Below the pieces are notes generated by a model. That model was not told the origin of the DNA. It saw nothing but the letters and a program-made list of their open reading frames with translations, and ran no database searches. Both the position numbers and the translations under genes were made by a program. 64,000 nucleotides of DNA from Minisyncoccia bacterium (GTDB taxonomy: Bacteria > Patescibacteriota > Minisyncoccia > 2-02-FULL-40-12 > IGHO2-01-FULL-4-A), in contig JBEKBN010000005.1 of NCBI GenBank assembly GCA_050015375.1, positions 1,858 to 65,857 on the forward strand, in the 5' to 3' direction. Below are positions 13,789-53,215 of the stretch, piece after piece. How positions within the stretch are numbered: position 1 is the first letter of the stretch; each line of letters starts with the position of its first letter.

Positions 13789-14132
13789 GCATAAATAACC
13801 CATCCAAAAAAAGATCGGACTCCGGCGTCGCCCTTTTGTTCACGATATTAATGATCGGCATTTTGCTCTCGATCATTTTGGTTTTGTCGAATATTTTTGC
13901 CATCAAGCTCAAACTGTCGGCTGAAACGAGGTACTCGGTCAGCGCCTATTACGCCGCCGAGAGCGGTGTTGAATACTGCCTGTACCTGAGAACATCGCCG
14001 ACTCCGGTTCCGGACCCGCCGGTTCTGGATAACGGCGCGACCTTTGATACCGGCGATACTTGCGCTTCCGGCAACATTAGATCGGTAGGTTCTTTCCGGA
14101 ATGTTTCCCGAGCCATCGAGATCTCATACTAG
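13785..14132 (+). CDS. PilX-N-like pilus-associated protein
   Basis: SDSGVALLFTILMIGILLSIILVL, the PilX N-terminal hydrophobic pattern. Four genes are linked by ATGA overlaps. Confidence 0.45.
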   Translation: MSINNPSKKRSDSGVALLFTILMIGILLSIILVLSNIFAIKLKLSAETRYSVSAYYAAESGVEYCLYLRTSPTPVPDPPVLDNGATFDTGDTCASGNIRSVGSFRNVSRAIEISY

Positions 14133-14133
14133 C

Positions 14134-14199
14134 CCCGTTAGAAGTCCGGTTCACAGATTTGAGCCGGCAGAAGCCCGTGCGCTTCTTGCTTCTAACGGG
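14134..14199. mobile_element. MITE-like element (CCCGTTAGAAG termini), 66 bp, immediately after a stop codon
   Basis: cccgttagaagtcc...gcttctaacggg starting 2 nt after TAG at 14130..14132. Confidence 0.6.
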
Positions 14200-14276
14200 G
14201 GGAGTTATGAACACCTAGCAATGCCAAAAACTGCGGGTGTGATAAAATATAACTACCAGGAAATGAAAAATTAAAC

Positions 14277-14822
14277 ATGGAAACTAACGAAAATCATCCA
14301 AAAAATTGGGCGGTGAAGGAAGTTGAAGAAAACTGGAGAAATATTTTAACGGTGATTTTAGCCGCGGTCATTTTGATTGTTGGATTAATTGTAATTTGGC
14401 GCAATCCGAAAGGACTGGTTACCATACCAACGCCAACGCCGACAGCGACGGCCAGACCGACAGTCAACATTATTCATGAGGGTTTGAAAACCGTTCTGAC
14501 CGGATTCCCGACCGATATTACATTCCCGGCCAGCGCCATTTTGACGGACAATCTCAAATACACCAGTCCCACCGGCCAAGTCCAGCTGACCAAGATGTTT
14601 ACGAGCACAAAAGCGGTCAGCGACAATTACACTTTTTTCTATAATCAATTCCAGAAATCCACGGCTTGGAAAATCGTTTCCAAACTTGATTCGGGCGCAC
14701 CTGCCGGTCTGATGGCTCTAGTTGCCACCGGCCACGGCGGAGTGTTGAGCGTTAACATCCGCAACGACAACTCCATCAAAAAAACCGTCATCGAAATCGA
14801 TTTCGTTCCGTCAACGAAATAG
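14277..14822 (+). CDS. Hypothetical membrane protein
   Basis: N-terminal TM helix, Thr/Pro-rich linker. Its 3' end is duplicated at 15876..15923. Confidence 0.5.
   Translation: METNENHPKNWAVKEVEENWRNILTVILAAVILIVGLIVIWRNPKGLVTIPTPTPTATARPTVNIIHEGLKTVLTGFPTDITFPASAILTDNLKYTSPTGQVQLTKMFTSTKAVSDNYTFFYNQFQKSTAWKIVSKLDSGAPAGLMALVATGHGGVLSVNIRNDNSIKKTVIEIDFVPSTK
14763..14810. repeat. 48-bp direct repeat, left copy (partner 15876..15923)
   Basis: aacgacaactccatcaaaaaaaccgtcatcgaaatcgatttcgt(t/c)ccg present twice, 1.1 kb apart. Confidence 0.85.
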
Positions 14823-14972
14823 AGACATCCCTGTTTATAAATTATAAAGTGGATTTAGGCCACTTTTTTCATTGAGTAAAAAAGCAAAAGCGGCAAATTC
14901 TTTATCAAACTGCCGAGGAGTTTGGCAAATTAATTAAGACAACCTTCCATCCATTTTGCGGTTGGATTCTAT

Positions 14973-15302
14973 TTGTTTTTGTGCTATAATAGAAATAGAA
15001 ATATGAAAATACCCGATTTCCTAAAAAAATACTTTTGGGATGTTGATTTTAACGGTCTCGATGCCAACACACATTCGCTTTTTATCGTTGAAAGAATATT
15101 AGAATACGGAGACGAAACCGCAACGAGTTGGATGCTGGATAATTTCAGCAAAGAGCAAATAAAGCAAACATTGCTGGAAAGAAAGGGTTTTTCGAAAAAA
15201 AGCGCTAACTATTGGTCTTTGATTTTAAATATACCTAAAGATAAAATTTCATGTTTGAACAGGTCTTACCAGCAGATGCAAAAAAGTCATTGGCCATATT
15301 AG
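14973..15302 (+). CDS. Hypothetical protein, upstream partner of the AbiEii-like gene
   Basis: 109 aa, low GC. Overlaps the next ORF by 52 nt in another frame. Confidence 0.4.
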   Translation: MFLCYNRNRNMKIPDFLKKYFWDVDFNGLDANTHSLFIVERILEYGDETATSWMLDNFSKEQIKQTLLERKGFSKKSANYWSLILNIPKDKISCLNRSYQQMQKSHWPY

Positions 15303-15874
15303 GCAAGAGCGGATTACTGAATGGCGCTTATCTGGCCGGCGGCACAGCTCTAGCCCTACAAATAGGACACAGGATTTCTGTTGATTTTGATTTTTTCACT
15401 CCGGAAGAATTTGACGAAAATATTCTAGTTCAACGGATGCAAAAAACAATTCCTGATTTTAAATTGGATAGGATGGAATGGGGAACCATTTTGGGATATA
15501 TTGGAGAAACCCGTTTCAGTTTGTTTTTTTACAATTATCCTCTTCTTTTCAAAACTCACGATTTCATGGGAGTTAAAATCGCAGACATAAAAGATATCGC
15601 CCCCATGAAAATAGCGGCCATATCGGACAGGGGGACGAAAAGAGATTTTATTGACTTATTTTTTTTAATAGAAGAGGAGAAAACATTGACGCTGGAAGAA
15701 GCGCTTGAGTTATATGATAAAAAATTCGGGTTACTTAAACAAAATAGAATTCATATACTGAAAAGCTTGGTCTATTTTGACGATGCCGAAAAAGGGGGAG
15801 AGCCCAAAATGATAAAAGACATATCTTGGGATAAAATAAAAAAAAGAATCGCAGAATTGGCGTTGGCTCAATAA
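15251..15874 (+). CDS. Nucleotidyltransferase, AbiEii/AbiGii toxin-like family
   Basis: AYLAGGTALALQIGHRISVDFDFFT, the characteristic GG(T/S)AL...D.DF NTase motif of this family. Confidence 0.65.
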   Translation: MFEQVLPADAKKSLAILGKSGLLNGAYLAGGTALALQIGHRISVDFDFFTPEEFDENILVQRMQKTIPDFKLDRMEWGTILGYIGETRFSLFFYNYPLLFKTHDFMGVKIADIKDIAPMKIAAISDRGTKRDFIDLFFLIEEEKTLTLEEALELYDKKFGLLKQNRIHILKSLVYFDDAEKGGEPKMIKDISWDKIKKRIAELALAQ

Positions 15875-15875
15875 T

Positions 15876-15923
15876 CAACGACAACTCCATCAAAAAAACC
15901 GTCATCGAAATCGATTTCGTCCC
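15876..15923. repeat. 48-bp direct repeat, right copy
   Basis: See 14763..14810. Confidence 0.85.
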
Positions 15924-15944
15924 CGGAAAATAATAAGTTGCTCT

Positions 15945-16003
15945 TCCGAGCCTTGTAGTTGACACTAAACTGTATATAGTTGTAAAATCCAGAAAGTACT
16001 TCC
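15945..16003 (+). promoter_or_regulatory. Promoter of the RiPP precursor gene
   Basis: TTGACA ... tgTAAAAT extended -10-like, then SD ggaggtg 7 nt before the ATG at 16018. Confidence 0.45.
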
Positions 16004-16017
16004 ATGGAGGTGTTTTT

Positions 16018-16194
16018 ATGTCTTTTATGTCTGGTTTTCTGACCTTGGACATTAGAGAGCCAGAGCAGGGCACACTTTCCGGCATCGAAATGCAACCGAC
16101 TTGTGATTGCGATGATATCGCCTGCGATACCAATTGCGATTGCCAAGATTGCGATTACAACTGTGAGGAATGCGACTGCGACAAAAGCGACTGA
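16018..16194 (+). CDS. Candidate RiPP precursor peptide A (58 aa), Cys/Asp-rich core
   Basis: Not in the ORF track because it is under 60 aa. MSFMSGFLTLDIREPEQGTLSGIEMQ-PTCDCDDIACDTNCDCQDCDYNCEECDCDKSD. Good SD, own promoter and terminator. Confidence 0.55.
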   Translation: MSFMSGFLTLDIREPEQGTLSGIEMQPTCDCDDIACDTNCDCQDCDYNCEECDCDKSD

Positions 16195-16224
16195 CAGTTT
16201 GCCCCGTTTGTAGCCAATGTCCCC

Positions 16225-16257
16225 GAGACGCCACTTCTTGGCGCCTCTTCTTTTTTA
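16225..16257. terminator. Bidirectional terminator after precursor A, convergent with the HExxH gene
   Basis: gagacgcc-acttctt-ggcgcctc followed by ttcttttttatt. Confidence 0.6.
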
Positions 16258-17124
16258 TTCAATGACGATGGGTTGTCTAAATTTTTTTAGAAGCTCCTGA
16301 TCTCTTAATGTTTTGTAGCCAAATTTATGCCACATCTCGATTTTTTTGCTTATTTGGTCGCCGATAGAAGCAAATAGTTTTATTAATTTATTAATAATCT
16401 GATTCATATCATTGTTATTATTTTTGTTAAAAATAATATTTTTGTCTACAAAATCAACCAGGGTCATATTATTATCTCCCTCCGATATGTGTATCTCTAC
16501 AATCTCTGGATTGCCTCGGGGAGATTTAGGCATATTAAAAAGGCTTAATAACTCTGGATTTTTAAACATACTTGAGGTGATTGATTCCTGTAAAACATAA
16601 ACCACATCCTTTGAAACATTTTGCCCAATTTTCCAGCCCATTTTCTCGATATATTCTAAAAAAATAATATGAGAAATTTCATGAATTGCAGTCGAAAGAA
16701 CCGACTTGTTTTCTGGATTTTTATTATTTAATTCTGCCAATACAGAATAAAAAAAATAATCTTTCTTGAATGGTGAAAACGGCAGGAGAGACAGATACGC
16801 GTTATATGCTATAGGATCAGACCATGAATAGTTCATAAATCCGCTCAAGAATTTAAAAGCCGCATTATTTTTTTTATTAATTATTTCTTGATTGTACTTG
16901 ATTATCTCTTCTAATTGATTACCCTTGCTTTGATGAAGTGAAACAACAAAATCACGCACTTTTTTTTCCGCATCAGAACTGTTTATTATGTCCGTAAGTT
17001 CCGGGTATGTTTTAAGGATCTTCTCTCGATTTTGAATAAAATATTTATGCCAAATAAAAGAAACGAAGGCGTCAGCATCTTTAATTGGGTCGTTAATAAT
17101 TTTGATTGTTGGGGATACGCCCAT
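16255..17124 (-). CDS. HExxH-motif protein, putative zinc metallopeptidase
   Basis: 289 aa, very low GC. TAIHEISHIIF. Homologous to 20241..20888 (T.IHEI.H.........W). Confidence 0.55.
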   Translation of the reverse strand: MGVSPTIKIINDPIKDADAFVSFIWHKYFIQNREKILKTYPELTDIINSSDAEKKVRDFVVSLHQSKGNQLEEIIKYNQEIINKKNNAAFKFLSGFMNYSWSDPIAYNAYLSLLPFSPFKKDYFFYSVLAELNNKNPENKSVLSTAIHEISHIIFLEYIEKMGWKIGQNVSKDVVYVLQESITSSMFKNPELLSLFNMPKSPRGNPEIVEIHISEGDNNMTLVDFVDKNIIFNKNNNNDMNQIINKLIKLFASIGDQISKKIEMWHKFGYKTLRDQELLKKFRQPIVIE

Positions 17125-17222
17125 TTCTTTAATATTTACAAATCTTTATTATAATTGTATAGTAAATTATAGCATAGCAACTGCACTTTAACAACGAAAT
17201 CCTAGCCAGAAAGAGGTTTTGT

Positions 17223-18563
17223 ATGTACAGGACTTTAAGCGCTCCGCTCATCACACAGGTTGAGTTGACTGAAAAATGTCCCAATAAATGTAGACATTGC
17301 TACAATTATTGGCGGACATTTAATACTGGCAAGTTCAATAATTTTCCAGCCAAAATGGTTGACCAGACGCTGGATAAATTAGCAGAAGCAAAAATATTTC
17401 ACTTAGTCATAACCGGTGGCGAACCACTTGCCAATAAACCAGTTCTTTTTAGTTTCCTCAAAGGCGTGGAAGCCCGAAAATTGACTTGCGGCATCAATTC
17501 GACATTATCAGGACTCACAAAATCAGATGCCGAATATTTTCAGGAAAGTGGCGTTATGAATGTCCTGATTTCGATATTGGGGTCAGACGAGAAAAAACAT
17601 GACGCTATTACCCAAAGCAGGGGTTCTTTTTCCCGCACAATTGATGGGATAAAAATATTGAAAAACACAAACATCCCCATTAGCGCAAATATGGTTGTCT
17701 CCGCCTTGAATATTGACGACATAATCCCGACTTCGATACTTGTTAAATCGCTCGGTTTTAAGAAATTCTTCATTACTAGGGCGGCTTGTCCCAGTAACTG
17801 TATTGATTTCAACGAGCTACGCTTAACAAGAGAACAGTTTACAGGTTACTTAAAAGAACTCCACGCTATTCAAGAACGGATGGGTTTGCGTACGGGTTTT
17901 TTGGAGTGCTACCCGCTTTGTGGCATGAAAGAATTACTACGATACAGTTCTTTTCTGGGTCGCAAATGTTTGGCCGGAATAACTAGCATGACCATAGGTC
18001 CGACCGGAGAAGCCAGACCCTGTTCCCATTTGGATAAGGTTTATGGAAATATATTCAAGGAAAATATCCGTGAAGTTTGGTCCAGAATGACGGAATGGCG
18101 TCATCAATCGTTGCTACCAGACATATGCAAGTCATGCAGAATCGTTAACTATTGTGGTGGCGGGTGCAGGATGGAAGCAAAAACGCTCGGGGGAGGTATA
18201 AATGAAATCGATCCCTTTGCTGAACCGGCAAATGTCGAATATGCGACAGAACAACTTGCCATTTTACACAGAAGAAAACTTGCGAAAAAAGATGAGCTAC
18301 CAAAATTCTGCAGGATAAACCCAAGCTTACGGGTGCGGAATGAATCCTTTGGAGGAGTGTTTTTTGTGGGGGATAAGTCATCTGGTTTAGTGGAATCTCC
18401 AGTGATGGATTTCGTTGGTAGGCTAGATAAAAGGCAAATTTATGAAGTTGATTTTTTGACCGCAGAGATAAATCGTTCTTTATCTTCCGTAAACATCACC
18501 AAGTTTCTCAACCGTATGTTCAAGGAAAAGATTTTCGTTGCTATTTCCGGGGATCATGTTTGA
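17223..18563 (+). CDS. Radical SAM / SPASM-domain peptide-modifying enzyme
   Basis: CPNKCRHCYN (CxxxCxxC) plus C-terminal SPASM cysteines CKSCRIVNYCGGGCR. Confidence 0.85.
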   Translation: MYRTLSAPLITQVELTEKCPNKCRHCYNYWRTFNTGKFNNFPAKMVDQTLDKLAEAKIFHLVITGGEPLANKPVLFSFLKGVEARKLTCGINSTLSGLTKSDAEYFQESGVMNVLISILGSDEKKHDAITQSRGSFSRTIDGIKILKNTNIPISANMVVSALNIDDIIPTSILVKSLGFKKFFITRAACPSNCIDFNELRLTREQFTGYLKELHAIQERMGLRTGFLECYPLCGMKELLRYSSFLGRKCLAGITSMTIGPTGEARPCSHLDKVYGNIFKENIREVWSRMTEWRHQSLLPDICKSCRIVNYCGGGCRMEAKTLGGGINEIDPFAEPANVEYATEQLAILHRRKLAKKDELPKFCRINPSLRVRNESFGGVFFVGDKSSGLVESPVMDFVGRLDKRQIYEVDFLTAEINRSLSSVNITKFLNRMFKEKIFVAISGDHV

Positions 18564-18745
18564 TCCCTTTTTTATTTGATAAATTTAATTATGCACTTAT
18601 CTTTCATATCTTCTTGACTTCTTCATTTAGGAGTAGTATATTGACAGAGTAGTGAAAGTGGGGTTTTTGGTTAGTTACCAGAACCTTAACAACGCAATAT
18701 TTATTTGACATCAGACGGGTTCAAGATTCGTCGGAAGGAGGGGCT

Positions 18746-19636
18746 ATGAAAGGCCTAAGATTATTTTTGATGATTTTGGCGGGGCTGGCGCTTATTACCC
18801 TGTTTCCGCAGGCCGTTTTCGGCCAGAAAGACGGGGATACCCGGCAGATCTATGTGTATCTTCCTACTCAAGTTGTAGGATTAGATGGACCGGCCGGGAA
18901 TCCAAATACTTACGAATATTTAACAGTTATGACATTTACCGTGCGACCCGGTGTTCCTGGTAGTTTTTATGCCTGGCATTTCGATTCGTCCGGGAAGAAA
19001 ATGCAACTGAGGATTTCAGGCGTCAACGGTAGCAGTTTTGAGGCTACTGAGTCGGGGGGCAGTATTGTACCCGGGGGGAGTATTACTCTGACATATTCCT
19101 ATTGCCAAGATAATCAATTTGGCGGATGCCCAAATACTAACATACGTAGCGGCTGGACGCGTTTTCAGGTGGGACAAACTTTTTCAGTGGCGTCTGGGTG
19201 GCAATACGACACCCTGATTTCCGTTGTCTTTCAGCGACGAGACAATCTCGGGTTTCCAAAAATCGTTGCTGATGCTCCCGTTGTTGAGCTTGACACTTCT
19301 TTTATCATTCCGGCATCAGTGACAACCGGCGGAATTGATTCGGGTATTGCCATAGTTAATCCTTCTGACCAACTAGCCAACTTGTCATTCCAGATTTTTA
19401 ATGATGTTGGCCAACTGAAAGGGTCAAAGCAACTGACACTTAATGCCGCCTATCAGTTGAGTGAGTTTGTATCCCAGCTTTTTCCAAATTTACCATTGGA
19501 TGGACTGGGCAATATGCTGACATCCGGCCAGTTAAGGATTTCTTCTGACACACCAATTGCCGTTCTTTCGCTGAAGTCCTACACCGCTCCCGGTTTTTTC
19601 AATATGGGCGGCGGAGCGGCTTTCGTTGTCAAATAA
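18746..19636 (+). CDS. Secreted hypothetical protein
   Basis: Signal peptide MKGLRLFLMILAGLALITLFPQAVFGQ. Confidence 0.5.
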   Translation: MKGLRLFLMILAGLALITLFPQAVFGQKDGDTRQIYVYLPTQVVGLDGPAGNPNTYEYLTVMTFTVRPGVPGSFYAWHFDSSGKKMQLRISGVNGSSFEATESGGSIVPGGSITLTYSYCQDNQFGGCPNTNIRSGWTRFQVGQTFSVASGWQYDTLISVVFQRRDNLGFPKIVADAPVVELDTSFIIPASVTTGGIDSGIAIVNPSDQLANLSFQIFNDVGQLKGSKQLTLNAAYQLSEFVSQLFPNLPLDGLGNMLTSGQLRISSDTPIAVLSLKSYTAPGFFNMGGGAAFVVK

Positions 19637-29111: not shown

Positions 29112-30590
29112 ATGGATTTGAAAAATCTGACAATCAAATCATTGCGCGACGGCTACGCCAAAAAAGAATTCACACCCGAAGAGATCCAGAAGGAGTTTTT
29201 GAAATTGATAGAGAAAGAAAATCCGAAACTCAACGTTTTCTTGTCTGTTTCCGAGAATCTCACCCATGATTCAAAATTCATGATTCATGATTCAATTCTT
29301 ACCGGTGTTCCATGCGCGATCAAGGATAATATTATGACCAAGGATTCGATCACCACCGCCGGCTCAAAAATTCTGAAGCATTACAAAGCGCCATACGATG
29401 CTACGGTGATCAAACTTTTGAAAAAACACGGAGCGATTTTTTTGGGCAAAACAAATATGGACGAATTTGCCATGGGTTCGACCACCGAAAATTCCGCTTT
29501 CGGGCCGACGAGAAATCCTCATGACCATGATCGCGTTACCGGCGGTTCATCAGGCGGTTCGGCGGCGGCTGTGGCTTCGGGGATGGCCGTCTTTGCTCTT
29601 GGTTCGGATACCGGCGGTTCGATCCGGGCGCCGGCATCTTGGTGCGGAGTTGTGGGTTTGAAGCCGACTTACGGAAGAGTTTCGCGCTACGGTCTCATTG
29701 CTATGGCTTCCAGTTTGGACCAGATAGGACCCATTACCAAAAATGTAGAAGACGCGGCCATTGTCATGAACGCCATTGCCGGCCACGATTCGATGGATTC
29801 AACGAGTTCACCCCCACACTCAAAATTTGAGTGTGGGGGCGAGCCAAAAGACACCCCCGATTTCACGAAAAATCTTGGCAAATCCATCAAAGGATTAAAA
29901 ATCGCCATCGCCAAAGAATTTTTCGGTTCACCTCCACACTCAGCGACTGAGTGTGGGGGCAAGGGTTTGAATTCAGAAGTGGCCGATGCCATCGAGAAAG
30001 CGATTTCAAAACTCCAATCCCAGGGCGCTCATATTGACTATGCCAGTTTGCCGTTGACGGACTATTCCATTGCTGTCTATTATATAATCGTGCCGGCGGA
30101 AATTTCAGCGAACCTGGCAAGGTTCGATGGCATCCGTTACGGCCATTCGTCGGTGAAAGGTAAAAATCTGCTTGACACCTATCTTGATTCCCGCGAGGAA
30201 GGTTTTGGCGCCGAGGTCAAACGCCGGATAATGCTCGGCACTTATACTTTGTCAGCCGGTTATTATGATGCTTATTATTTGAAAGCCCAAAAAGTCCGGA
30301 CTCTTATCAGACAAAGTTTTGACAAAATTTTTGAACATTATGACGCCATTATCGGTCCGACCATGCCTACGATCGCGCCTAAGATCGGGGAATACAACGA
30401 CCCATTGACTTTTTACATGGCTGATATTTACACCTGCCAGGCGAATCTGGCCGGACTGCCGGCGATTTCCGTGCCTTGCGGGTTCATTGAAACCGGTGGC
30501 AAAAAACTTCCGGTCGGTTTGCAGATCATCGGCAAACATTTTGACGAAGAAACGATTTTACGAATAGCCAATGCTTACTCGAATTCATAA
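29112..30590 (+). CDS. gatA: Asp/Glu-tRNA amidotransferase subunit A (amidase signature)
   Basis: GGSSGGSAAAVA amidase signature. Start taken at MDLKNLTIK. Contains two in-frame palindrome inserts. Confidence 0.9.
   Translation: MDLKNLTIKSLRDGYAKKEFTPEEIQKEFLKLIEKENPKLNVFLSVSENLTHDSKFMIHDSILTGVPCAIKDNIMTKDSITTAGSKILKHYKAPYDATVIKLLKKHGAIFLGKTNMDEFAMGSTTENSAFGPTRNPHDHDRVTGGSSGGSAAAVASGMAVFALGSDTGGSIRAPASWCGVVGLKPTYGRVSRYGLIAMASSLDQIGPITKNVEDAAIVMNAIAGHDSMDSTSSPPHSKFECGGEPKDTPDFTKNLGKSIKGLKIAIAKEFFGSPPHSATECGGKGLNSEVADAIEKAISKLQSQGAHIDYASLPLTDYSIAVYYIIVPAEISANLARFDGIRYGHSSVKGKNLLDTYLDSREEGFGAEVKRRIMLGTYTLSAGYYDAYYLKAQKVRTLIRQSFDKIFEHYDAIIGPTMPTIAPKIGEYNDPLTFYMADIYTCQANLAGLPAISVPCGFIETGGKKLPVGLQIIGKHFDEETILRIANAYSNS
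29811..29839. repeat. 29-bp perfect palindrome cccccacactcaaaatttgagtgtggggg, in-frame in gatA
   Basis: Encodes SPPHSKFECGGEP. Confidence 0.85.
29931..29959. repeat. Palindrome cctccacactcagcgactgagtgtggggg (same family), in-frame in gatA
   Basis: Encodes SPPHSATECGGKG, 120 bp from the first copy. Confidence 0.8.
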
Positions 30591-31142: not shown

Positions 31143-32806
31143 TGCTACACCGTTCTCAAGTTTTTTTGCTGATCATGCTGGCCTTCATCAGCGGTATTTT
31201 TTTGGGCTCGTTCGTTTCGGTTGATCAAAAATATGTTTGGATCGCCATAGCGATCTGCGCGGCCGCGGTCGCTGTTTTTTTTCGGCGCGACTCCAAGCTT
31301 CTTCGTCCGAAGGTCGCTTTTTACGCTTTTTTGGCCCTGATCTTCCTGTTCGGTTTTTCCCGCATCAACACCACGAACTCTGAAAAACATTTGCTCCAAG
31401 AATTCGCCAAAGCCGCCGCCAACATCAAAGATCCTTCAGGTAAACACAAAGTTAAGATTGACCTCATCGGCTATATCAACAACGAACCATCCCGCGGCGC
31501 CAAAATGCAATCATTTGTTTTTAAATCGAAGGAATTGATCTCTGGCAATTACTCCGCCGATACCGATGAAAGCGTTTTGGTCAACACCGATTTTTTTCCG
31601 GAGTACAAATATGGCCAAAAACTCGAGATCTACGGAGAATTGCAATTGCCGTCGAGCACGGCCAGCCCCCACACTCAAAATTTGAGTGTGGGGGCCAGTT
31701 CCTCGATGGACCCCGTTAGAGGCAAGACACCGTCCCAGGTGTCTGCCGACACGCCTTCGGCGGGGCGGGCCTCTAACGGGGTGGATTACGCCGCTTATCT
31801 CGCCAAAGATGATATTTTCACGACGATGTATCAGCCGATGATAAGACAGGTTGATTTCAATTTTTCTTTTTTTGAAAAATATAAAGTTGCGATTTTGCAA
31901 AAAATATTCACTTTCAAATCGGCTTTTGAAACAGCCGTAAGCAAAGCCATTCCCGAACCCAACGCCGCTTTCGTCAACGGAATTTTGCTTGGCAGTCGAG
32001 CCCAAATTCCGGATGCTCTCAAAAATGATTTTGCCATCACCAGCACAACCCACATTCTGGCCATCTCCGGTTTCAATATTACCATCGTCGCCGGAATTCT
32101 CGCTTCATTTTTTCTTTTCTTTTTCAAACGCCGGACGGCATTCTGGTTCGCCATCGCCGGCATCGCACTTTTCACGATCCTGACTGGCGCCCAGGCCTCG
32201 GTCATTCGGGCGGCGATCATGGGCTGTTTGTTCTTGCTGGCAACGCGAGTTGGTAGGCCTTACACTGCCCGAAACGCCGTAATATTCGCCGGCGCCTTGA
32301 TGGTTTTGCTAAGCCCGGAAATTTTACGATACGATGTAGGTTTTCAGCTTTCTTTCATGGCAACTTTGGGTCTGATATATCTCTGTCCGTTTTTCACCGA
32401 CAAATTCAAAAAGATCACAAATTTTTTCGGTCTGCGAGAGAATCTAGCCATGACATTATCGGCGCAAATTGCCGTTCTTCCTCTTCTGATATTTTATTTC
32501 AACCGATTGTCAATTGTTTCTCTGCCAACAAATCTTCTGGTCTTGCCGATGGTGCCCCTGGCGATGCTCTTGGGTTTCGTCGCCGGATTGGCCGGGATGA
32601 TCTTGCCATTTTTGGGCGTCATTATCGGATATTTCGCCTGGTTTTTGACTGCGATACAGCTCTGGTTGGTGGAATTTTTTGCCAAGCCGTCATGGGCGGC
32701 GCCGGCGGTTGCTTTTCCGTGGTATGCTTTGGCGATAACTTATGTGGTCATGATTTTTGTGATCTACAAATGGATTTATGCTCGGCCCAAACCAAAACAA
32801 AAATGA
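31142..32806 (+). CDS. comEC: ComEC/Rec2 competence protein, membrane channel part (DUF4131 plus competence domain)
   Basis: Multi-TM. ATG 31142 (MLHRSQVFLL) is preferred over the track start at 31016. Contains one palindrome and one MITE in-frame. Confidence 0.75.
   Translation: MLHRSQVFLLIMLAFISGIFLGSFVSVDQKYVWIAIAICAAAVAVFFRRDSKLLRPKVAFYAFLALIFLFGFSRINTTNSEKHLLQEFAKAAANIKDPSGKHKVKIDLIGYINNEPSRGAKMQSFVFKSKELISGNYSADTDESVLVNTDFFPEYKYGQKLEIYGELQLPSSTASPHTQNLSVGASSSMDPVRGKTPSQVSADTPSAGRASNGVDYAAYLAKDDIFTTMYQPMIRQVDFNFSFFEKYKVAILQKIFTFKSAFETAVSKAIPEPNAAFVNGILLGSRAQIPDALKNDFAITSTTHILAISGFNITIVAGILASFFLFFFKRRTAFWFAIAGIALFTILTGAQASVIRAAIMGCLFLLATRVGRPYTARNAVIFAGALMVLLSPEILRYDVGFQLSFMATLGLIYLCPFFTDKFKKITNFFGLRENLAMTLSAQIAVLPLLIFYFNRLSIVSLPTNLLVLPMVPLAMLLGFVAGLAGMILPFLGVIIGYFAWFLTAIQLWLVEFFAKPSWAAPAVAFPWYALAITYVVMIFVIYKWIYARPKPKQK
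31666..31694. repeat. Palindrome cccccacactcaaaatttgagtgtggggg, in-frame in comEC
   Basis: Flanked by (g)ccag on both sides. Confidence 0.85.
31711..31781. mobile_element. MITE-like element (CCCCGTTAGAGGC termini), in-frame in comEC, TSD TGGA
   Basis: ccccgttagaggc...gcctctaacgggg. Confidence 0.7.
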
Positions 32807-40459: not shown

Positions 40460-40650
40460 AAAATCCCGGACCAGGCTCACCGGATTGCTTTCCGGGGACT
40501 TAGGAAATCCCAGCGAGATTTCCGTCATCCGGTTGTCAGTTGCCGTCACTGATTGACGGCTTTTTGATTTCACAAAAAGCCGTCAATCAGACCCTGCCGA
40601 CGGCACCGACAACGGCCCCTGAAAGCAATCCGGTTCGCAGGGATTTTCAA
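40460..40650. repeat. 191-bp palindromic repeat element, copy 1 (about 98% identical to 53025..53215)
   Basis: Arms aaaatcccggaccaggctcaccggattgctttccgggga...cccctgaaagcaatccggttcgcagggatttt. Centre carries a bidirectional terminator-like hairpin gattgacggctttttgatttcacaaaaagccgtcaatc. Confidence 0.85.
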
Positions 40651-53024: not shown

Positions 53025-53215
53025 AAAATCCCGGACCAGGCTCACCGGATTGCTTTCCGGGGACTTAGGAAATCCCAGCGAGATTTCCGTCATCCGGTTG
53101 TCGGTTGCCGTCGCTGATTGACGGCTTTTTGATTTCACAAAAAGCCGTCAATCAGACCCTGCCGACGGCACCGACAACGACCCCTGAAAGCAATCCGGTT
53201 CGCAGGGATTTTCAA
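53025..53215. repeat. 191-bp palindromic repeat element, copy 2
   Basis: Inserted at the centre of a pre-existing palindrome gcaaaaagtagttaatt | aattaactactttttgc that includes the kinase stop codon. Confidence 0.85.

Follow-up and report, generated by a model that had tools for sequence, protein, structure and literature searches.

The stretch analysed here, 64,000 nucleotides (nt) from the genome of a Minisyncoccia bacterium (contig JBEKBN010000005.1, positions 1,858 to 65,857; called the window below), carries a small cassette of two overlapping genes, one for a protein of the DUF6922 family and one for a nucleotidyltransferase (NTase) of the AbiEii type, and this cassette is bracketed by two copies of a 48-nt piece of the gene that precedes it. 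We consider it rather probable that the cassette is a two-gene module of the addiction or defence type, which has no recombinase of its own and was inserted with long target duplication. The anatomy of the locus, of which we are highly confident, is as follows.

14277-14822, plus strand: host gene, 181 amino acids (aa) with an N-terminal hydrophobic segment, ending ...IDFVPSTK* in the list of open reading frames (ORFs)
14762-14809, plus strand: copy 1 of the direct repeat, in the 3' part of the host gene (codons ...NDNSIKKTVIEIDFVP)
14810-14935, plus strand: leader, carrying the present gene end STK (stop codon 14820-14822) and a terminator-like hairpin at 14846-14866
14936-15002, plus strand: start of the variable cassette; similarity to the strain variant L005 stops at 14935/14936
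15003-15302, plus strand: DUF6922 gene, putative antitoxin or regulator, 99 aa from the ATG (109 aa if translation starts at TTG 14973)
15251-15302, plus strand: overlap of the two genes, 52 nt, with the NTase in the -1 frame
15251-15874, plus strand: NTase gene, putative toxin, 207 aa
15876-15923, plus strand: copy 2 of the direct repeat, starting 2 nt past the NTase stop; the host frame, followed to 15931, reads ...NDNSIKKTVIEIDFVPGK*
15959-15988, plus strand: strong promoter-like site, TTGACA-18-TAAAAT, 11/12, ahead of the gene for a Cys-rich peptide of 58 aa (16018-16194)

The repeat finder reported the two copies as identical at 47/48 positions: the leading 45 nt are exact and the sole mismatch lies at 14807/15921. 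The exact 45-mer was found at just two sites in the window, even with three mismatches allowed; it was matched in 0/100 shuffles and ranks third among the longest exact repeats of the window. A sequence-only reading of this DNA had taken the repeated unit for the last 48 bp of the gene. The duplication itself stands, but copy 1 spans nt -61 to -14 of the gene 14277-14822 and thus ends 13 nt short of its end. Beyond the repeat, copy 1 runs on as GTCAACGAAATAG (...FVP-STK*) and copy 2 as CGGAAAATAA (...FVP-GK*, stop codon 15929-15931), so that the alternative C-terminus ...FVPGK described in that reading is indeed encoded; the sequence after copy 2 could be a displaced or alternative end of the host gene. 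Both ends of the repeat are sharp, as global alignments of the 12-90-nt flanks gave p = 0.08-1.0 in comparison to shuffles. Homology beyond the 48 nt, with the STK* and GK* tails differing by an indel or with an NTase C-terminus derived from the host, was rejected on the basis of these flank shuffle tests. Neither a tRNA nor an Rfam family was matched at the repeat site. The bracketed segment (14810-15875) measures 1,066 nt and holds both cassette genes. Its GC content is 35.6%, in comparison to 46.2% for the window, which places it in the lowest 1.6% among windows of equal size, and downstream of copy 2 (15924-16254) the GC content is back at 45.6%; a low-GC module bounded by repeats, as first described, is therefore confirmed. 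We also noticed the heptamer TCAACGA at 14811-14817, directly after copy 1, and again at 15875-15881, where it spans the junction of the NTase stop and copy 2. It may be a microhomology remnant of the joining event; the observation is post hoc, and its statistics are weak.

The structure of the locus was found at 100% identity in contigs of other samples. The contig L001 (ENA), from a k=141 assembly, crosses both repeat junctions with unique flanks and so spans both copies, and L003, an independent JGI contig, covers 14782-18924 and agrees at 100% identity over the NTase gene, repeat 2 and the downstream genes. These contigs make it very improbable that the duplication is an assembly artefact, that is, a chimera of strain variants, even though the source is metagenomic and short-k contigs break within both copies (at 14782, the start of L003; at 15905, the end of L004; and at 15891, the start of L100 and L101). 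Such breaks are expected of k=31 graphs at an exact repeat of 45 nt, and similar duplications are present in many independent assemblies, L012-L015 coming from four samples and assemblers.

The NTase ORF matched PF08843 (AbiEii) with an E-value of 1e-13 and 52.2 bits against a cut-off of 22.5, in two partial stretches only, and so passed the hidden Markov model check suggested together with the sequence-only reading. It also matched 12 PADLOC AbiEii models weakly (best E 4.8e-8); NCBIfam holds no model for either cassette protein. More than 6,500 NTase homologues (6,550) were retrieved, and the listed ones are 207-233 aa long, stand alone and have PF08843 as their sole domain. In an alignment of 26 homologues, the residues G30, G31, S43, D45, D47, K120, R127, D132 and D135 were invariant. 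The AlphaFold model of the NTase (predicted local distance difference test, pLDDT, 92.8) gave as its top fold matches in the PDB the JHP933 protein of H. pylori (4O8S/4OK0, E 9e-8 to 3e-7, probability 1.00), followed by MenT1 of M. tuberculosis, both alone and as MenA1-MenT1 (8AN4/8AN5, E 1.4e-4 to 1e-3, probability 1.00), and further by aminoglycoside and poly(A)/CCA nucleotidyltransferases. Searches of PDB sequences with the NTase and with an NTase profile yielded nothing meaningful. Model and alignment together display a pol-beta-like NTase fold with the expected active site (G-G/S, [S/T]-x-D-x-D, K, D). In MenT1 the conserved residues are T39, D41, K137 and D152, T39 being the site of auto-phosphorylation induced by the antitoxin (PMC11375011). 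The S/T-x-D pattern and the spacing of 15 residues between K and D would equate the NTase with MenT1, a correspondence drawn from the pattern and not from an alignment. On its predicted structure, the NTase is thus assigned to the DUF1814/AbiEii/MenT family, in the short form typified by MenT1 and JHP933. MenT toxins lengthen the acceptor ends of tRNAs and stop translation (PMC7450476, PMC10435456).

The upstream ORF matched PF21956 (DUF6922) with an E-value of 2.6e-16 and 59.2 bits against a cut-off of 27, and its 175 homologues are all stand-alone proteins of about 100 aa. The AlphaFold model (pLDDT 87) is all-helical, with six helices; a fold search of the PDB with this model returned no match, no E-value being below 3.8. 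The locus had been proposed to be a type IV AbiE cassette, which did not hold: the partner is DUF6922, and the search for AbiEi found no match for the upstream gene in Pfam, PADLOC, NCBIfam or among solved structures. The two genes do show the general features of a toxin-antitoxin pair, as they are small, adjacent, co-oriented, tightly linked and variably present, and from their sequences a toxin-antitoxin function seems reasonably probable.

The DUF6922 and NTase genes form a true unit of two genes, whose long overlap is deeply conserved, because the two-ORF layout, the 52-nt overlap and the stand-alone homologues recur across phyla. The set examined comprised 80 related loci from GTDB species representatives, in which the NTase is 37-69% identical to that of the window, and covers Patescibacteria, Nitrospirota, Omnitrophota, Planctomycetota, Gammaproteobacteria, Chloroflexota and others. 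Immediately upstream of the NTase gene, 68/80 loci have a DUF6922 ORF that is 75 aa or longer, and 69 of the 70 upstream ORFs scanned (the window's own included) matched DUF6922. The overlap measures 52 nt in 42/80 loci and 49 nt in nine more; in the contexts retrieved for three homologues (L006-L017) it was exactly 52 nt throughout. The family alignment shows no variation in the N-terminal MFE of the NTase, and the DUF6922 tail encoded within the overlap (...CL...WPY*) is conserved as well.

The ORF list agrees with the sequence-only reading in that a 109-aa ORF overlaps the NTase by 52 nt out of frame, but the suggestion made along with it, of a frameshifted single gene, was not upheld. It is hardly credible that the two ORFs make up a single gene, be it a pseudogene or one whose programmed frameshift gives a DUF6922-NTase fusion. 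Although the NTase lies in the -1 frame and the overlap contains an A6 run (GCAAAAAAG), the same layout with the same 52 nt is shared across phyla, the homologues listed for the two proteins all stand alone with one Pfam domain, the NTase start MFE does not vary, and the A run is gone in the closest relative, which reads CAAAAGAG. A programmed -1 frameshift or transcriptional slippage on A6 was rejected for the absence of the run in that relative and for the invariant NTase start codon and MFE.

Some related loci hold further pairs of this kind. In L006-L008 (e.g. L008:118-3590), two or three AbiEii-type pairs stand in tandem, in the order of an 85-aa gene with a 203-aa NTase, DUF6922 with a 209-aa NTase, and a 208-aa gene with a 240-aa NTase, and the units are separated by diverged copies of one host-like segment of 43-62 nt, as if a site had been reused. 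In unrelated genomes, MNT/HEPN and Polbeta + NTase_sub_bind pairs were found 1-2 kb from the DUF6922-NTase cassette (L016:6158-7176, L012:5202-5916). These neighbouring NTase-type toxin-antitoxin pairs suggest small toxin-antitoxin or defence islets.

We then asked how often such cassettes are flanked by repeats, comparing for each the 400 nt upstream with the 400 nt downstream on the same strand (blastn, E < 1e-4); as controls, the paired 400-nt intervals were shifted by ±2,400 nt (first set) and by ±1,700 and ±3,100 nt (second set). Flanking direct repeats were present at 11/74 cassettes, in comparison to 1/119 positions of the first control set (Fisher p 1.3e-4, odds ratio 20.6). The second set gave 2/244 positives, which makes 3/363 for both, and flanking duplications are thus about 20 times commoner at cassettes than at control positions. 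The repeats detected in this test are 24-245 nt long, 72-98% identical and different at each locus; because they differ at every locus, they are host sequence and not the ends of an element. They derive from the 3' end of the upstream gene in the window, in L036 and in L012/L018, and elsewhere from a gene junction (L037), a convergent gene's 3' end (L046) or a divergent gene's 5' end (L020). In L012-L015, Staskawiczbacteria-type contigs, a full rRNA adenine dimethylase gene is followed by the DUF6922-NTase pair and then by a 110-aa fragment of the dimethylase gene; the repeat of L012/L018, the 3' part of the rRNA methyltransferase gene, extends over 300 nt at 88% identity or about 450 nt with gaps. 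Relative to the NTase stop, the downstream copy starts at +2 nt in the window, +3 in L036, +3 in L046, +9 in L050 and -11 in L060, and the upstream copy ends 0-200 nt ahead of DUF6922.

No Pfam match to an integrase or transposase was present within about 10 kb on either side of the cassette, and no relatives of the cassette were found on IMG/VR viral contigs or PLSDB plasmids. Site-specific or homologous insertion had been put forward in the sequence-only reading. The site-specific half does not agree with repeats that have no sequence in common and vary in length between 24 and about 450 nt, whereas recombination by the host fits a locus with no mobility gene nearby.

A conspecific contig from another sample, L005, carries a different allele of the cassette. 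It is 99.8% identical to the window over 13826-14740 and identical over 14829-14935, and 11/13 mismatches between the two are within 14741-14828 (L005:916-1003, 88 nt), only two lying in the surrounding 1 kb. By type, the mismatches assigned to this patch are eight synonymous, three nt in two codons and two after the stop codon. The pattern identifies 14741-14828 as a probable short recombination patch, centred on repeat copy 1 and wider than the repeat. At six sites of the repeat the two copies of the window agree and L005 differs, and at 14807 L005 has the nucleotide of copy 2. The 126-nt leader is common to both strains (98% over 14810-14935; identical from 14829) and was not found next to any other cassette or locus beyond L005; the idea that it is a conserved end of a family of mobile elements was dropped, as it occurs in L005 only. 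From 14936, L005 diverges fully into a different DUF6922 gene (METLSKPSLFWDV...), and its contig stops before the right junction. Another contig, L004 from Logan, has its first nucleotide at 14906, 30 nt exactly before 14936, as a k=31 graph would give if both alleles share that sample. Since L005 has another allele after the same leader, the history of the locus includes allelic substitution, and the locus is a slot of long standing with a polymorphic cassette, not an insertion that is simply present or absent.

The closest relative of the cassette itself, L098, is 82% identical at the DNA level from 14989 on. It comes from a related organism (73-81% DNA identity in the pilin genes), in which the cassette occupies the syntenic end of the pilus operon, although the gene ahead of it is unrelated and codes for a response regulator. 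Orthologous loci without the cassette, which the sequence-only reading had advised looking for, did not turn up; what we found was the L005 variant with its other DUF6922 allele in the same slot. When JGI metagenome contigs were scanned with the repeat core, there was no hit; exact-protein look-ups with the downstream peptide and the radical SAM protein returned identical contigs or contigs broken in the repeat, none of them empty, and a metagenome scan with the NTase protein yielded three distant loci only.

On these data, we propose that 14810-15875 is an addiction or defence-type module in which the NTase would be the toxin and the upstream DUF6922 protein its neutraliser. Both genes would be read in overlapping frames from a single transcript with a short leader. 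On the model of MenT1, MenT3 and AbiEii, the NTase may add nucleotides to the 3' acceptor ends of tRNAs and so block translation, and DUF6922 could restrain it either by binding or by inducing auto-phosphorylation of the active-site S43. Ribosomes translating DUF6922 would cross the NTase start, and the 52-nt overlap might in this way subordinate the translation of the toxin to that of the antitoxin. As to the arrival of the module, the likeliest route would be homologous or illegitimate recombination by the host once DNA had been taken up, such as the integration, by one crossover, of a circularised fragment bearing 48 nt of the gene, in which case the repeat would be as long as the homology carried; microhomology-mediated joining or template switching would yield the same structure. 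The insert would have provided a substitute gene end (STK*) together with a terminator, the old end (GK*) being left behind the cassette, and the cassette core would later have been swapped between strains. We lean slightly towards tracing the repeat to insertion with long target duplication.

Several observations weigh against this proposal. Similarity of DUF6922 to known antitoxins was not detectable by PADLOC, NCBIfam or the PDB fold search, and a literature search yielded no mention of DUF6922 and no experiment on any DUF6922-NTase pair. At 85% of the related loci there is no flanking repeat. L098 carries the cassette at the syntenic end of its pilus operon, and given this the cassette may be old at the locus. 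L005 alone shares the 126-nt leader, in which the STK* end and the terminator lie, and this leader may be native host sequence; if it is, then 14810-15875 is wrong as the insert and the second copy of the repeat arrived or arose otherwise. Finally, the empty site, in which FVPGK* would directly precede the peptide promoter, was absent from every collection searched, so that it is from the repeat alone that we infer the insertion.

The same observations can be put together differently, with the cassette as an old resident of the pilus operon end and the second 48-nt copy as a by-product of later recombination, either an allelic replacement of the core or the gain of the orphan gene and leader; on this view, only 14936-15923 was imported, and the host gene with its STK* end and terminator is native. 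The 82%-identical cassette of L098 behind an unrelated response-regulator gene would be accounted for, as would the gene end and leader that L005 shares ahead of another allele, the species-specific nature of that leader, the clustering of the L005 mismatches around repeat 1, and the start of L004 30 nt before 14936, as two branching alleles would give. Left unexplained would be the sharp 48-nt piece of the upstream gene only 2 nt past the NTase stop and the recurrence of the same geometry at unrelated loci in other phyla, and we regard this history as unlikely, while granting it a real share of the probability. We give distinctly less to an integrase-less satellite moved by a recombinase encoded elsewhere, with the 48-nt repeat as the attL/attR core. 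Insertion at the 3' end of a gene with a restored gene end is typical of integrase-driven islands, and the repeat does contain a perfect 14-nt palindrome (CGAAATCGATTTCG). However, such islets have an adjacent tyrosine or serine recombinase and a conserved att core, and here no integrase is encoded within about 10 kb, the repeats of related cassettes share neither sequence nor length (24 to about 450 nt, 72-98% identity), the repeat and leader are not seen at other loci or elsewhere in the window, and no relatives were found on viral contigs or plasmids.

A bolder extension of the proposed insertion, to which we attach very little probability, is that DUF6922-NTase pairs are a recombinase-free mobile addiction module which crosses phyla and whose own products aid insertion or stabilisation, DUF6922 representing a novel antitoxin class and the overlap serving as a safety device in translation. 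Were the NTase to act on DNA ends, this would explain why the downstream copy often starts near the NTase stop.

The host gene into which copy 1 falls is the last one after a type IV pilus/pseudopilin operon, comprising PilO, T2SSE (twice), T2SSF, a pilin (N_methyl), a prepilin peptidase (Peptidase_A24) and four pseudopilin-like genes. Its product is a lineage-restricted orphan, with one homologue (99% identical) among 5.8 billion proteins and no Pfam family matched. Ahead of the DUF6922 gene, an extended -10-like element, TGCTATAAT, is located at 14982-14990, 12 nt before the ATG, and there is no Shine-Dalgarno sequence. The consensus promoter scan did not list this site; comparable -10-like elements precede the ATGs of L005 and L098 by 6 nt. 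The element is a putative promoter, and its position suggests that the cassette transcript may be short-leadered or leaderless. On the other side of the cassette, the promoter-like site 15959-15988 marks the resumption of host sequence past repeat 2, and is followed by the gene of the Cys-rich 58-aa peptide and then by a radical SAM/SPASM gene. The region 15959-18563 resembles a cluster for a ribosomally synthesised and post-translationally modified peptide, with a strong promoter, the 58-aa peptide with its Cys/Asp-rich C-terminus (...CDCDDIACDTNCDCQDCDYNCEECDCDKSD) and the radical SAM/SPASM enzyme, and includes a 289-aa gene of very low GC content on the opposite strand.

Two further repeats of the window were noted. 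A 33-nt palindromic element (CCCCCACACTCAAAATTTGAGTGTGGGGGC) occurs at 29811-29843, 29931-29963 and 31666-31698 with 79-97% identity, each time in frame within a long ORF: a GatA-like amidase has two of the copies (...SPPHSKFECGGEP..., ...SPPHSATECGGKG...), and a ComEC-like membrane protein has the other (...ASPHTQNLSVGAS...). It recalls the palindromic elements of Rickettsia that are inserted in coding sequence. A non-coding repeat of about 190 nt, at 40460-40650 and 53025-53215 (spacing 12,565), consists of exact blocks of 78, 66 and 35 nt; its copies lie directly after fusA and after a sugar-kinase-like gene, and have no tRNA or Rfam match.

As a single locus, the cassette is a modest finding, and its interest comes from the abundant unstudied pair, the conserved overlap and the recurring duplications. 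The pair of DUF6922 and a short NTase has thousands of homologues, mostly in Patescibacteria and also in Nitrospirota, Omnitrophota, Planctomycetota, Proteobacteria and others, and is absent from the searchable literature. If our proposal is true, DUF6922 would be a new antitoxin partner for MenT/AbiEii toxins, with an overlap that is unusually long and conserved to the nucleotide count. The recurring duplications would extend recombinase-free gene movement, so far documented for restriction-modification systems, to toxin-antitoxin-like cassettes, in lineages whose gene flow probably relies on natural transformation. If the repeats permit loss of the cassette by recombination, addictive cargo would resist it, which offers a model for persistence in tiny genomes.

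Among known systems, AbiE has in common with the cassette an AbiEii-type toxin (by Pfam and PADLOC) and a bicistronic order with the antitoxin-like gene first. It differs in its AbiEi gene, with a winged helix and a C-terminal domain, which has no counterpart here, and in the length of the toxin, classical AbiEii being about 90 aa longer than the NTase. Strictly speaking, then, this is no AbiE system, as the uncharacterised DUF6922 takes the place of AbiEi. MenAT1 (Rv0078B-Rv0078A) and JHP933 are closer, each with a small DUF1814/PF08843 NTase toxin (about 190-230 aa). They are the best fold matches, MenT1 has the same active-site spacing, and a small partner gene lies directly upstream, as here; JHP933 belongs to a variable "plasticity" region, and its host bacterium is naturally competent (PMC4125220). 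In contrast to MenAT1, the partner in the window is DUF6922, in which no similarity to MenA1 is recognised; there is a 52-nt gene overlap, and the pair is known from sequence and model.

For the way in which the cassette is embedded, the nearest precedent is the insertion with long target duplication named by Kobayashi's group for restriction-modification systems (Nobusato et al. 2000; Furuta et al. 2010, PMC2853133). The published repeats exceed 30 bp, with 46-47 bp in H. influenzae and T. thermophilus and up to about 400 bp in H. pylori, and the published cases share an overlap with the 3' end of a gene, deviating or low GC content, no mobility gene, occurrence mostly in naturally competent species, and allelic substitution (PMC2853133). 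Those cases carry restriction-modification genes and are defined by an empty target allele, whereas the cargo here is toxin-antitoxin-like and the search for such an allele found none. In other respects the likeness is close. Furuta et al. considered repeats of more than 30 bp around an insert of less than 20 kb with the whole pair, which corresponds to 48 nt around 1,066 nt in the window, with no linked mobility gene and a repeat that is neither multi-copy (two copies in 64 kb) nor part of a tRNA. As in the published cases, the 48-bp repeat lies over the 3' end of a gene, the GC content is lower, and allelic substitution has taken place at the locus; the lineage also has DNA-uptake machinery, and the Saccharibacteria, cultivated members of the Patescibacteria, are naturally competent (PMC10633639).

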